In this document: one piece after another, positions 5,612-58,806 of the stretch
Numbering within the stretch: position 1 is the stretch's first letter
Layout: every line of letters starts with the position of its first letter
Assembly: GCA_951406725.2 (NCBI GenBank)
Contig: OX597814.1
Coordinates: 59,086,001 to 59,150,000, forward strand
Origin: Octopus vulgaris
Taxonomy: Eukaryota
Reading direction: 5' to 3'
DNA length: 64,000 nt
Position numbers and translations under genes: made by a program
Notes under the pieces: model-generated
Seen by the model: the letters and a program-made list of their open reading frames with translations, nothing else
What the model was told of the DNA's origin: nothing
Databases searched by the model: none

Positions 5612-5847
5612 CTTTATTTAAAGCAGCAGAAAATTCAACAAAACATGTTACTCCGAGTTTCCCGTTGCCGTTCATCGGATAGTTTTTGCTAGAATCTAGC
5701 AAAAACTGTCCGCTGAACGGCAACGGGAAACTCAGAGTAACAGGTCTTGTTGAATTTTCTGTTGCTTTAAATAAAGCATATTACTCTATCACTGATATTT
5801 GGGTACTCTTTTTTCCACCTTGTTTCACATTTATGTGTTTACTCCGG
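5612..5847. mobile_element. Fold-back mini-element (82-bp arms, 5612-5776, 1-nt loop at 5694) with a hammerhead-like motif in each arm, bounded by (TA)n
   Basis: Arms are reverse complements with 6 mismatches. Right arm reads ctgt CCGCTGA a cg-GCAA-cg g GAAA ctcagag TA acag (5706-5743); the left arm has CCGATGA. Confidence 0.75.
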
Positions 5848-6420
5848 TATATATATATATATATATATACATATATATGCAGGCACCCACACACATATGT
5901 AGGCAACAAAAAGAGATGGTGTCGATGGGGAACGTGGGTGCAATGGAAATCAACATCTCTCAACTGGTGTTTCATTTCCATTTTCGTATCAGAGCAAGAT
6001 TGATGCGTCTTATCTAAATAATTTCTGAAAATTTTCTTTATGACATATTTCATAGTTTTGTCCACCATTATTCCATAATTATAGACTGTAGAATCTATTT
6101 TATTTTGCAGTCAAATTACCCCTTTCTTCGGTCGTCTTCATTTCATTATCGTATGTAGTACCCTCTTACGTATTACCATCGAAACGATAATGGGCATATT
6201 TTGTTCAACCATAATCTTTCCATCCTGGTCGATAAAATGCAAACCTTTGTTTTGGCTATTGTGACGGATCTTCATTTTCTGAACCAGCTCGTGAATATAA
6301 ATATTTCCTTCACTGAAAATATTGTAATCATAAATGCACACACACATCCACGCACAAACACACACACCAACGCATACACAAATACAAATGAATATATTCG
6401 TGTACCTATAGTTATATGCT

Positions 6421-8541
6421 CATCATCATTGTTCGACCGTGGTCGAGACAATGGAATTTACCATGTTGCGCCAGACTTCACGGTCCATCATAGCATTACG
6501 GAGGTCCTGTTGCTGGATGCCTGTATCCCTGGAGATTACATCAGGGTAGGAGAGTGTGCGCCCTCTGGTGTTGCGAGTAGATGGCTTCCAGAGGAGAAGA
6601 GTAGAAATTACTTTCTTTTTCAGCTCTACAACAATGTCCAGCAAACTGGACTCTCCTACCCTTCACAAGAGATGACACAGGTGGTAATTTCCCATATATT
6701 TGCATTTTAGTTGGATGGCGCCTCCACGAGAGATTTTGAGCTCTCATAAGGAGGCGAGTGTAGGTTCCATCCAACCGCCTCTCAAGCTTCTTTGATAACG
6801 TCCAGGTTTCTGAGCCATATAGTAGGATTGGTTCGACTGTGGCTTTGAATATTTCAAGTTTGAAGTCTCTACTTAGATTTGATGACCAGATCTTATGCAT
6901 GTCATTACAGGCTGACCAGGCCATATCCTTTCTAGTTAGAAAGTCTTTTCCAGATGATGATATGTATGACCCAAGATATTTATAATGAGAAACCATATTT
7001 AAAGGTGCACTGTTGAGAGTGTGGATGATGCAATCACTGTTGGACAGGCACTTGTTTATGTATTCAGTTTTGGTCTCATTAAGGTAAAGACCTACACAAT
7101 TTGAGGCTTGTTCAAGAGATTGTAAAAGAGACTGGGCATTGGAGAGAGAATCACTGATAAGAGCGATGTCGTCAGCAAAGTCAGTGTCTGTCAAGTACTC
7201 AGCTGGGTGTCTGGAACTTCTTCTTGGTTTTATTTCAAAGCCCTTGCCAGAGATGGTATCAACTGACATACGTAGCACATAATCAACAACAATGATGAAA
7301 AGAAATGGGGCGAGTGTGTCTCCCTGCAGTATTCCGGCCTCGATCGAGAAAGATGATGTTTCTCCATCTGGGGTTAAGATGGTTGAAGACGTATCTGTGT
7401 AGAGGACCTTGATGGCAGAAATAATTTTGTCTGGTATCCCATAGAGCTTAAGGATTTCAAACATCTTGCACCTATCTACAGAATCGAACGCTTTAGAAAA
7501 GTCTACAAATACCATTGCAAGATCGCGATTAAATGCTTTTGATTCTTCAATAAGTCTGCGCAGGCATAGTATCTGGCTCAGCGTTGAGCGCCCATGTCTG
7601 AATCCATTTTGGTTCTTTCGGAGCAAAGGTTCAACAAAAAGGACAAGACGATTTAGGATCAGTTTGTTGTACAGTTTTGCAGCAATTGACATTAGAGATA
7701 TGCCCCTGTAGTTGGCGACGAGGGACAAATCGCCTTTTTTGGGTATTGGAATAATTTGAGACTGGTGCCAAATCTTTGGAGCGACAAAGGTGGAAAGTGC
7801 GTGGTTGCAGAGGTTAAGCAAAAGTGTGTGAAATCTATCATCCTTCCAAATCACAGCCGGAATGTTGTCGGGACCAAATGCTTTCGAGGCTTTTAGTTGC
7901 TTGGTGGCTGCTGTTAGTTCAAATATGGTAAAAGGGGAGGTGTTGATGTCCAGCGTGTCTGATATAGGCACACTTGGGAGAGTGGGGTTATCAGGGATTT
8001 TGGCATTCTTCCCAAGGAGGTTTTTAAAATGGGTTGACCAATTTTCTAAACGCTTCTTAGCTGATCCCCCTTTAATTCTAATTGATGACACAGAATTTTT
8101 GCCTGATAGGTCTTTGATGGATTTCCAGGCGAGATGGTGTTTTTTACTAATGTGCTCTTTCGATAGTTTACTAATTTTGCCATTGATAAATTCGACATCG
8201 GCGTTCAAGTAAGCCTCATCAAGATTCTTCCTGGCAGCTATGAGTTGGATCTTCAGTGACTGGGATGGAGAACGGTGGTAAGCTAGTGATATAGACTTTA
8301 GATGGTTTCTGGCTTCGATGACATTTGGGGAATTAGAAGGTTTGCTCTGGCCCCTCCTCTTCCTTTTGGGAAGAGTAGCCAGTGCAACTTCCTCTGTTGA
8401 TTTGATGAGGCTGCTGTATACTTCCTCAATGTTCTCAGCATCTATTTCAGAAGTAGACAGAGATTGAAATTTGTTATAGACCTCAATAGTAAATTGTTTG
8501 GACATATCGGGGTTAGATAAGACTTCCTCCCAGTCGATCAT
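6421..8541 (-). mobile_element. RTE-clade non-LTR retrotransposon, 5'-truncated
   Basis: RT ORF, short (TGA)n tail at the 3' end, and 9-bp TSD TTATATGCT (6412-6420 and 8542-8550). Confidence 0.92.
6541..8541 (-). pseudogene. Reverse transcriptase ORF of the RTE LINE (666 aa; lacks the N-terminal endonuclease; C-terminus frameshifted into ORF 6426-6644)
   Basis: Motifs KAFGPDNIP, PIPKKGD..NYRGISL, QNGFR, FVDFSKAFDSV, GILQGDTLAPFLF, DFADDIAL, YKYLGS, LLYGSETWTL. Confidence 0.92.
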
Positions 8542-8744
8542 TTATATGCTAGCATACATATATATATATATATATATATATATATATATATATATATATA
8601 TATATATATACACACATATATACATGTGTGTGTATGTATATATGCATATCTATATATAGTATATATATATATTATATATATATATATATATATGAACCCT
8701 CCACAAAACCCCCATCTCCAAAAATTTGAAGCGGATATGATTAA

Positions 8745-9646
8745 TCTATATATATAATATGCTTGGCTTATTAGAAATTTATGAAACTATAGAAAATATT
8801 ATAGATATTACTAAAGTGACATAGGGCACCATGTAGTACCACCATTGCTAGAGATAAGAATCTAAAGAACTTAATTAACCACAGAAGCGCTATTTCAATG
8901 ACTGGCAAGGGAGACAGATCATCGGTGGTTTCGAATTTGTATGGAAAAGCATCTTAATCATCATCGGTGGTACTTACCGCGCCTAAGATTCAACGCAATT
9001 CACCATGTCAGATTTTAAGGAATCCGGTGAACTCATGCTGATTTCATAAACGGTAAAACTTACATCATATAATATGGGTGGCTTATTATCAATTTAACAA
9101 GCTAAAGGCAAAGTTATAGACGTCACTAAAGTGACAAGGTGAGTTGGATTTAATCTTAGACGCGGTAAAAACCACCGATAAGAATTAAGACGTTCTAGCA
9201 TCAACTTCGAAATCGTCATGTCCACTAGGGAGCCTGTCTCTCTTGTCAATGATGAAGATAGTGCTTCTGTGGCTATTGAGTTGTTTTGGCTCTTATTTCT
9301 AGCAACGCTGGCGCTATTTAATACCTTCTGTCACTTTAATGACGTCTATAATTATGCCTTTATTTTCTTCAATTGCTTAGAACCCACCCATATTAATTGC
9401 AGATTTTCACTTTTAAGGTTTTTTTTTTTTTTTAAATCAAGGTATGAGATCAATGGATTTCTTATAAACTGACAAGGTCAGTTGGGTTTACTCCTAGGAG
9501 CGGTAAGAGCCACCGATGAGAATTAAGCTGCTCTAGCATCAAAAGTCGATATCACCAGTAATCTCGCTATGTCCGTTACGGAACTAGTCTCCCTGGTCAG
9601 TCATTAAAATAGTGGTTCTGTGGCTATTAAATTATTTTCACTCTTA
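8745..9646. repeat. Inverted pair of tandem ~315-340 bp monomers (order C, B-rc, C | B, C-rc, B) with a degenerate hammerhead-like core in each B module
   Basis: Module junctions at TGACA/TGTCA: 8817, 9006, 9132, 9329, 9470. The cores read CCGAT(G/A)A-gaatt..gatgc-tcta-gcatc..ttc-GAAA (consensus) at 9175-9212 (+), from 9513 (+) and ~8930-8968 (-). Confidence 0.65.
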
Positions 9647-9649
9647 AAA

Positions 9650-57703: not shown

Positions 57704-57980
57704 TATATATATATATATATATATATATATATATATATATATGTATATATATATATAAGAAATATTGAATTTCTAAATCTCTCGTAGAGACATGTACGGT
57801 GGTGGGGCGATAGAATGGTTGTATACTGTTAATCTAACAAGAACGTGACAGTAGGGGTACACCACCGCTGTGTAGCCCTAGGAAGCATCGAACGCCTCCT
57901 GATGGCTTTGACACATTTTTCCCTGTGTCCTTATATACATTTACGAGGGGAGACAAACACCCCCGGCTGCCGGAACTGCA

Positions 57981-58025
57981 TCTAGGGACACGTGTTTCAG
58001 GATCGTTGTCCTTCATCGGCCTAGA
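57981..58025 (-). ncRNA. Hammerhead motif, left-arm copy with CCGAUGA core
   Basis: Reverse complement reads tctagg CCGATGA agga-caacga-tcct GAAA cacgtg TC cctaga. Confidence 0.75.
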
Positions 58026-58281
58026 GTAGCAGACACCGGTCAGCTGGTGATATTTGCCTCGACTTCGTAATTGTATATATCTATATTCAGTGAAGTCTAT
58101 TCACTGATTATCAAAATAAGAAATATTGAATTCTATCGCCCCACCACCGTACATGTCTCTACGAGAGATTTAGAAATTCAATATTTCTTATTTTGATAGT
58201 CAGTGAATAGACTTCACTGAATATAGATATATACAATTACGAAGTCGAGGCAAATATCACCAGCTGACCGGTGTCTGCTAC

Positions 58282-58326
58282 TCTAGGCTGATGAAGGACA
58301 ACGATCCTGAAACACGTGTCCCTAGA
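58282..58326 (+). ncRNA. Minimal type I hammerhead ribozyme with intact core; predicted cleavage after GUC at 58320
   Basis: tctagg CTGATGA agga-caacga-tcct GAAA cacgtg TC cctaga. 6-bp stem I, 4-bp stem II, self-complementary stem III ACACGTGT. Confidence 0.88.
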
Positions 58327-58511
58327 TGCAGTTCCGGCAGCCGGGGGTGTTTGTCTCCCCTCGTAAATGTATATAAGGACACAGGGAAAAATGTGTCAAA
58401 GCCATCAGGAGGCGTTCGATGCTTCCTAGGGCTATACAGCGGTGGTGTACCCCCTACTGTCACGTTCTTGTTAGATTGACAGTAAACAACCGTTCTATAT
58501 ATATATATATA

Positions 58512-58806
58512 TTTTGGTAAAAATGGTACGATAACCAAAGAAAGAAAGAGACCTCAATATTATGTAAATAGAGGAAATTCTCTGTAAAATAATATGTGAC
58601 AATAATTCAATAGCCAAGAGAAAACTCTGAGTTTCGGATAACGAAGTGGAAATCCACAACACCATCTCTTTGGTTATCTGGCCATCTGAAAAACGAAAAG
58701 GGCGTTTTTCAGATGGCCAGCTAACCGAAGAGATAGTGTTGTGGATATCCACTTCGGCATCCGAAACGCAGAGTTTTATCTTGGCTATTGAATGATTGTC
58801 ACATAT
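58512..58806. mobile_element. Fold-back element (~104-bp arms, 58592-58806, loop 58696-58702) with a hammerhead-like motif in each arm, bounded by (TA)n
   Basis: Arm consensus gataa CCGAAGA gat..gtggatatccac..atc c GAAA ctcagag TT ttatc (right arm 58720-58780). Confidence 0.72.

Follow-up and report, generated by a model that had tools for sequence, protein, structure and literature searches.

What are the short fold-backs that crowd one 64-kb stretch of the Octopus vulgaris genome, and why do the hammerhead ribozyme motifs within them all point away from the centre? The stretch, here called the window, covers positions 59086001-59150000 of contig OX597814.1 (64 kb; genome of 2.80 Gb in 227 contigs; 33.6% GC, with abundant TA runs). 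The initial annotation had described five fold-backs and three solo motifs in it; all eight loci are present, each as a member of a family that is dispersed in the genome and for which a type I hammerhead is predicted. We label the families by their window copies: A (5612), B (8745), C (9650), F (13577), G (15039 and 57579), D (57756) and E (58592). With profiles derived from actual copies of each family in the genome, 14 hammerhead motifs are located at the eight loci, and a first look at the genome returned 567 to 3529 candidates per family, of which 40 were scored for each. The fold-backs are probably back-to-back, 5′-truncated ends of Penelope-like elements (PLEs), both coding elements and ones lacking an open reading frame (ORF), that lie in (TA)n and for which one source RNA was copied from two start sites, one for each DNA end. 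The hammerhead-bearing segment is a pseudo-long terminal repeat (pLTR), which lies after the ORF and again directly before the start of the next ORF.

Family A is the pLTR of an intact, 727-aa Hydra-clade PLE. At one locus (L051) the endonuclease C-terminus, a 1.06-kb untranslated region (UTR), family A and (TA)n follow one another unbroken, and in 27 of 30 loci selected by their ORF a sense copy of family A lies downstream of the end of the Hydra-type ORF, 26 of these copies at ~0.97-1.12 kb. At another locus (L261) two full 727-aa copies stand head to head, with family A directly before the ORF and again ~1 kb after it; the pLTR, partial tandems and an inverted 5′-truncated copy were seen for this family at L261 and at L262. 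The 727-aa protein carries the motifs RWK, DKT, YRDD, CxxC (CRLC) and CxH (CRH) and a modified linker without the second Cys of the Hydra CxCX5C pattern, and these motifs together with the TA target place it putatively in the Hydra clade. The protein itself has no Pfam match. Its homologues carry PF26215 and one of them PF01541, and it aligns weakly, end to end, with a protein of the same genome in which Pfam confirms a reverse transcriptase (RT) and a GIY-YIG domain.

Family E lies in register ~0.78 kb behind a second Hydra-like ORF in 11/25 loci, with a protein match in 17/25. This partner ORF was seen solely as broken copies and is ~30-50% identical to that of family A; inverted copies are present for family E as well. 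Family G is found downstream of a Neptune-type GIY-YIG endonuclease with a CX4CxxC linker in 22/30 loci, the GIY-YIG match (E 0.002) being below the curated cut-off. Two family G copies from an unbiased sample of the genome (sixty 10-kb stretches from 28 contigs, their positions arbitrary but fixed, 599,900 nt in total) are 97.7% alike over 1.9 kb, with the frame open; no divergent pair of family G occurs among the pair tallies. The label Poseidon for the family G partner was dropped, since the linker is CX4CxxC. Families A, E and G, which make up four of the eight window loci, are therefore 5′-truncated ends of coding PLEs, as an ORF with RT and C-terminal GIY-YIG lies upstream of the repeat in all three. 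These results bear out the link to PLEs that the initial annotation had drawn. Its description of the fold-backs as unrelated does not hold for A and E, which share a stem III motif and have related ORFs; of the solo motifs, 15039 and 57579 both belong to family G. It had also pointed to RT and GIY-YIG remnants at 34870-35900, where only a weak Hydra-type endonuclease remnant was found: no PLE RT was detected there, and the remnant shows no link to any window family.

Further Neptune-type elements were seen in the same searches. One very young PLE, the 775-aa family (L263, L264, L231-L260), has 132/132 scored copies identical over 297 aa. It has many intact 775-aa frames, a CX4CxxC linker, a CCGAAGA hammerhead and a ~30-nt tail, and its full copies carry a long frame also upstream; it is a candidate for biochemistry. 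Another Neptune-type family, known from a 508-aa fragment (L262; L410-L439), ends in (TA)n ~300 nt past the stop, and none of the hammerhead profiles matched its 3′ UTR.

The 3′ ends of these elements are of two kinds. Two preferred 3′ ends each were found in families A, E and F and in the 775-aa family, lying relative to the predicted cleavage site at +42 and +109 in A and at ~+41 and +109 in E, with tails of ~67-70 nt in A and E, 140 nt in F and ~30 nt in the 775-aa family. Head-to-head pairs were then taken from the ORF search tables, that is, chosen without regard to their ends. All 24 scorable pairs combined one short and one long end (11/11 in the 775-aa family and 13/13 among the Hydra pairs, 14 of which were examined; p ~1e-4 per family, if pairs are independent). 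These p values take as background the single ORF-selected ends, which comprised 17 long and 8 short (5 unscored) in one family and 12 long and 15 short (3 unscored) in the other. Short copies gave the same picture: the partner of a long A arm was short in 38/38 unique cases, and mixed ends were found in 12/12 pairs of E, 6/6 of F and 6/7 of D, where ends were rescored because of an internal TATATA and some rescored distances are inflated by alignment into TA runs. All 49 ends scored for this rule reach a TA run within ~6 nt, and both A ends also occur as loose ends into TA in contigs from public runs (short 3/4, long 4/4). In young Hydra pairs the two arms agree to 99.8%, compared to 97.0% between pairs, and the partner is the closest copy in 11/12; the two arms come from one source, or were homogenised afterwards. 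A hotspot of transcription starts at the centre of A fold-backs is at most possible: the 5′ ends have a cluster at -42 to -47 but are scattered from +23 to -78. Two further arrangements of family A were observed. Four loci (L358, L360, L363, L368) share a centre junction at T-run microhomology, either a recurrent join or a re-copied fold-back, and one locus (L048) has at least three A fold-backs in a row with TA runs between them, which suggests repeated insertion or local duplication.

The outward reading of the hammerheads, claimed for the window, was seen in 5/5 fold-backs there and extends to other loci. Across 260 loci, some of which were fetched twice, opposite-strand neighbours without TA between them were divergent in 69 cases and convergent in none, whereas those with TA between them were convergent in 6 and divergent in 3; in the unbiased sample 3/3 pairs were divergent. 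This polarity follows from the geometry of head-to-head joining, and a role of the ribozyme is not needed for it. The claimed preference for TA is also present, with 17 of 26 scorable profile matches in the unbiased sample lying at most 300 nt upstream of a TA run compared to 19.8% of random positions (p 5e-7).

Families B, C and D differ from A, E and G in that they are closed. Their unit periods are 318-351 nt (~345) in B, ~530 nt in C and 363-364 nt in D, and their longest ATG frames measure 70-111 aa, with no long ORF; they are retrozyme-like, closed, ORF-less tandem units of a few hundred nucleotides with one type I hammerhead per unit, as in non-long-terminal-repeat (non-LTR) retrozymes. 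Family F extends ~0.9 kb or more upstream, is pyrimidine-rich and does not close on itself, and no ORF was reached in the 11 stretches followed. Of the eight window loci, four are thus ends of coding PLEs, three are retrozyme-like and one (F) is the 3′ end of a longer element. Two candidate relationships were rejected. Family F is not the end of the element at L162, as it lies behind the endonuclease in only 1/30 related loci, and the 508-aa family was ruled out by sequence comparison as parent of B, C, D or F.

Do the motifs look like ribozymes? When 25-30 copies per family are reduced to their column majorities, all seven families fit the type I hammerhead fold, with stems I and II and a palindromic stem III around the core as in minimal type I hammerheads, and with stems that differ between families. 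Family D has stem I CUAGG/CCUAG, stem II AGGA/UCCU and the palindrome CACGUG as stem III; family B has AGCCA/UGGCU, GAAUU/AAUUC and a 10-nt palindrome; family G has CUUU/AAAG, a bulged A (after A9), GAGC/GCUC and a minimal stem III ACGU. The stem III motif CUCAGAG is common to A and E, and stem II of A has only 2 bp. Most window copies are decayed: a strict descriptor is passed by three of them (57987-, 58288+ and 15043+) and a looser one also by the right arms of C and E, while the first descriptor used gave 2 matches in the window compared to a shuffle mean of 0.05. In the unbiased sample the strict descriptor found 11 matches, compared to 0-2 in eight shuffles and 1 in the reversed sequence, so that motif counts are about twentyfold above shuffles; a decoy core of the U3-A8 type gave 8 matches, which may include a known U3-A8 variant. 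An Rfam scan of the window showed no hammerhead among the 150 of 201 matches listed, which were microsatellite and hairpin noise only. In addition, a third Hydra-like element (L195) has a decayed CCGAUGA hammerhead-like motif ahead of its TA end.

The cores fall into several types, and the invariant pattern CUGANGA...GAAA...UH with G10.1-C11.1 does not run through the window families. The canonical core is found in 16/17 copies of C, 11/16 of F and 32/32 ORF-linked copies of A, while C4 is found in 55/63 copies of E, 31/33 of D, 8/8 distinct copies of the 775-aa family and most short A copies, and U occupies core position 6 in 62/65 copies of G (looser-anchor tally). The C4 core was set aside as a novelty, since CYGANGA is already a used descriptor (PMC13481778) and U4C is known; for a natural U6 hammerhead lineage, a limited search of partly accessible literature gave no earlier report. 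We aligned 48 copies of G and its sister group G′ (46 of 55 variants plus the two window copies). The invariance of the core in this alignment is built in, because rows were picked with a pattern that contains the core. Of the stem cells, 92.3% pair, compared to 21-51% when the alignment is slid, and position 7 (N7), position 17 (H17) and loop II vary freely, the two positions and a stem I pair in the manner of hammerheads. One stem I pair is changed on both sides in 7/48 copies, from C-G to G-C in the sister group, which carries the canonical A6. Together with the fit of seven families to the fold, this favours selection on the hammerhead. We expect the motifs to act as weak ribozymes, aided by dimer formation or by protein, in the processing of tandem transcripts.

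How PLEs form tandem and inverted insertions with a one-sided tail is posed as an open question in the available text of PMC8557442. We propose that the GIY-YIG endonuclease would open both strands of palindromic (TA)n, and that the two 3′-OH ends would prime RT at a proximal and a distal start site, both downstream of an uncleaved hammerhead. Both cDNAs would stop early and would then be joined at their truncated ends, leaving the hammerheads facing outward. The predicted cleavage site lies within the copies, as expected of an uncleaved template. For a PLE of Anolis, the accessible part of PMC11167929 reports that both strands of AT-rich DNA are cut and then extended by the protein in vitro, that two internal RT start sites delimit the genomic tail, that insertion proceeds from uncleaved RNA, and that the hammerhead cleaves only with protein. 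By analogy, the short and long ends likely correspond to these two in vitro start sites. Families B, C and D would likely be mobilised in trans by PLE enzymes, as their PLE-type layout suggests and, for D, the ends as well. A wider version of the proposal, to which we give somewhat less than an even chance, would make PLE integration in general an asymmetric double priming, in which one RT-endonuclease dimer works on one source RNA with the proximal site at one end and the distal site at the other, whether the family is Hydra, Neptune or ORF-less, and would add a successful PLE lineage built on a U6 hammerhead that canonical searches miss.

Several observations weigh against the two-start-site reading or against active ribozymes. 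In bulk, no strand difference in the start sites was found in PMC11167929. The end rule covers A, D, E, F and the ORF-picked Hydra and Neptune pairs, the ends of B and C being unscorable, and it has exceptions in L228 (A, long plus near-long) and L002 (D, four-piece). Among old short copies the partner is closest in 0/25 cases for A, 2/11 for E, 2/8 for D and 1/6 for F, and in the nearly invariant Neptune family in 2/8; gene conversion between arms may be an alternative source of within-pair likeness. Families B, C, D and F share no convincing sequence with the six coding families tested (best match 26 nt, E 8e-4), in a genome that holds many more families. Eight stretches gave no clear extra folding stability compared to shuffles (z -1.47 to +1.42), positions 10.1-11.1 are often unpaired (A.G, A.A) in A and F, and most copies of E, D and short A have C at position 4, where the change U4C reduces hammerhead activity in vitro (PMC3088659). 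Covariation in the G/G′ alignment is thin, with 2/10 pairs double-changed, and not above shuffles (419 of 500). The unbiased sample also holds 61 generic fold-backs, 21 of them with TA at one end, and among the 61 the descriptor was passed by 4 outward and 1 inward motif, one of each chance-like. When the 21 were viewed by eye, several more showed full or partial outward motifs and four were SINE-like (short interspersed nuclear element) repeat pairs without a motif; not every fold-back in this genome is a hammerhead element. Outside the window, more outward hammerhead fold-back families with unequal ends at TA were noticed in L233 (~770-1250 nt behind the ORF), L271:5085-5912, L300:9709-9846, L312:2681-3835, L321:7431-8008 and L324:390-762.

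A single cDNA could also yield such structures, if it were primed at the distal site, folded on itself and was copied into DNA, with the endonuclease resolving the hairpin at the proximal site. This route accounts equally well for the shared source and for the short and long ends, and the tail is ascribed to endonuclease resolution in the accessible part of PMC8557442. Ten of 22 family A centres are symmetric within 4 nt, four of these lying away from the -42 to -47 cluster; the other 12, however, are asymmetric, full-length head-to-head pairs have unpaired spacers of ~0.2-1.1 kb, and both sites are RT start sites in vitro (PMC11167929, part of the text). We therefore consider self-folding of one cDNA unlikely, although it deserves more weight than the readings that follow, and prefer copying from two start sites.

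The initial annotation had taken all eight loci for non-autonomous ribozyme mini-elements. This stands for B, C and D, which close on themselves without long ORFs, and is refuted for A, E and G, which are continuous with PLE ORFs; F reaches far upstream, and the centre junctions of A vary by locus, although one junction is found in four loci, so that as an account of all eight it is very improbable. It had also held that the elements are not ordinary miniature inverted-repeat transposable elements (MITEs), and this is confirmed. An origin as MITEs, or as fold-back DNA transposons in which hammerhead-like motifs arose by chance, would suit the short palindromes at TA, the folding energies, which shuffles equal, and the lack of a hammerhead among the listed Rfam matches. 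Yet the outer ends are fixed but unequal, the inner ends and centres are variable, solo and tandem copies are frequent, the segments form the ends of elements with RT and endonuclease, and motif counts exceed those of shuffles as described above; the hallmarks of MITEs, terminal inverted repeats of fixed extent and a defined target duplication, were not found, and we give this origin hardly any credence.

The density of hammerheads was estimated from the unbiased sample, as the window itself is enriched by construction. Intact motifs, that is, those that pass the descriptor, occur about once per 55 kb, or ~51,000 genome-wide (95% range 26,000-92,000), which agrees with a very high genome-wide number and not with the 1 per 8 kb that the window had implied. 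Twelve family profiles gave 29 matches in the sample, corresponding to ~135,000 genome-wide as a lower bound. Available text reports >6000 hammerhead motifs in coral and up to 120,000 in axolotl (PMC7229834), and ~9,000 in Xenopus (PMC4209133); the density here is high, though not unique.

Much of the architecture has precedents, which we compare here from the accessible parts of the sources. In canonical endonuclease-bearing (EN+) PLEs of the Hydra and Neptune clades (Craig et al. 2021, PMC8557442), as here, a pLTR has a hammerhead near its 3′ end, partial tandems and an inverted 5′-truncated copy at the 5′ end occur, the tail is often one-sided and the target is (TA)n; the Hydra protein motifs are shared with the family A partner, and the CX4CxxC linker with the family G partner and the 775-aa family. 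Tails there are 30-40 nt, compared to the longer ones of A, E and F; the one-end rule is counted here and nearly absolute, many cores here deviate from CUGANGA, and our putative clade placements are by motifs. The minimal hammerheads of PLEs (Cervera and de la Pena 2014, PMC4209133) resemble ours in being type I with a short stem I, in a palindromic stem III that implies dimers and in a bulged A after A9 as in G, and the same source describes dual motifs 100-700 bp apart on opposite strands in Schistosoma. Their consensus is CUGANGAH with G10.1-C11.1, whereas here U6 is found in G, C4 in E, D, short A and the 775-aa family, and an unpaired 10.1-11.1 in A and F. Families B, C and D, whose units measure 345-530 nt, resemble animal non-LTR retrozymes (PMC7229834; 10.64898/2026.07.22.740005) in lacking an ORF, in having one type I hammerhead per unit and in forming partial head-to-tail repeats, and the preprint 10.64898/2026.07.22.740005 proposes a PLE origin for such retrozymes; instead of arrays, however, we see for the most part scattered monomers or head-to-head pairs, set in (TA)n and bounded by PLE-type ends. 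The Poseidon element of Anolis (PAc; Frangieh et al. 2024, PMC11167929) likewise has two start sites downstream of the hammerhead, AT-rich two-strand cleavage and an uncleaved RNA; its accessible text reports that neither start site favours a strand, and the pairing of the two within one insertion is not discussed there. An octopus repeat annotation of 2026 (PMC13282606) reports recently active Penelope-like families and, in the available text, does not discuss ribozymes. Our literature search found no paper on cephalopod hammerheads or on the pairing of the two ends; Arkhipova 2006/2017, Pyatkov 2004 or figure-only supplements may hold the end pattern or the core variants.

Already known, then, are pLTR hammerheads, opposite-strand dual motifs, inverted truncated copies, one-sided tails and (TA)n targets (PMC4209133, PMC8557442), as are ORF-less hammerhead repeats derived from PLEs (PMC7229834, 10.64898/2026.07.22.740005; all as far as the accessible text goes). 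To this known architecture we add the end rule as counted, along with the common source of the two arms, a lineage with U6 and an estimate of the density. The pairing of a short with a long end, both from one source, sharply constrains the mechanism of PLE insertion. In this genome the near-identical, intact 775-aa family, of which at least 132 copies do not differ over 297 aa, would let double priming and the use of U6 be tested directly. If the U6 motif cleaves, a core of this kind throughout a lineage would extend the range of sequences that the ribozyme takes in nature. Searches limited to CUGANGA undercount hammerheads. Many short palindromes in such genomes are ends of PLEs, which repeat pipelines may file as MITEs, SINEs or unknown.

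Table. Hammerhead-bearing elements and related features of the window (positions within the 64 kb). The limits of the long arms of A (to 5847), C (to ~10176) and E (from ~58513) are corrected from the sequence.
Feature	Position	Strand	Remarks
Family A fold-back, two 5′-truncated pLTR copies of Hydra-clade PLE, head to head	5612..5847	both	left arm short 3′ end, right arm long 3′ end (~67-nt tail); TA runs flank both sides; inverted arms 5607-5693/5695-5781, 92% identity
Family A decayed type I hammerhead, right arm	5706..5743	+	family core CCGAUGA or CUGAUGA; 2-bp stem II, GCAA loop; palindromic stem III
Family A mirror hammerhead copy	~5646-5683	-	
Family B, ORF-less unit ~345 nt; one inverted and two tandem copies	8745..9646	both	complex: tandem of period 338-351 plus inverted copy, 71-84%; right end adjoins family C
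Family B decayed hammerheads (three)	8896-8990, 9150-9255, 9488-9607	-, +, +	
Family C fold-back, ORF-less unit ~530 nt	9650..10176	both	long arm runs into (TA)n; inverted arms 9650-9830/9837-10017, 84%
Family C hammerheads	~9747-9806, ~9861-9919	-, +	long stem II
Family F solo copy, 3′ end of longer element	13351..13694	+	hammerhead ~13577-13625; short 3′ end into CA/TA run
Family G solo copy, 3′ end of Neptune-type PLE	14975..15137	+	minimal hammerhead 15043-15068, U at core position 6; ends in (TA)n
Hydra-type GIY-YIG endonuclease C-terminus, weak broken remnant	34983..35258	-	tblastn E 5e-5 to 2e-4, 25-31% identity
Second family G copy	57460..57702	+	decayed hammerhead with changed G12; runs out into (TA)n; probably continues 5′ through C-rich stretch from ~57160
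Family D fold-back, ORF-less 363-nt unit	57756..58498	both	left arm long end, right arm short end; TA both sides; inverted arms 57854-58132/58175-58453, 99%; extra arm pieces reach 57748 and 58498
Family D intact hammerheads	57987-58019, 58288-58320	-, +	CCGAUGA (-), CUGAUGA (+)
Family E fold-back, 3′ end of second Hydra-like PLE	58513..58804	both	core CCGAAGA; left arm long end, right arm short end; TA both sides; inverted arms 58592-58695/58703-58806, 91%

Other repeats lie among these elements. A 666-aa open frame for the RT of a non-LTR retrotransposon occupies 6541-8541 of the window on the minus strand and is 5′-truncated at a TA run, and dispersed repeats at 5244-5490 and 36020-36400, which we take to be SINE-like, sit beside TA-rich sequence.

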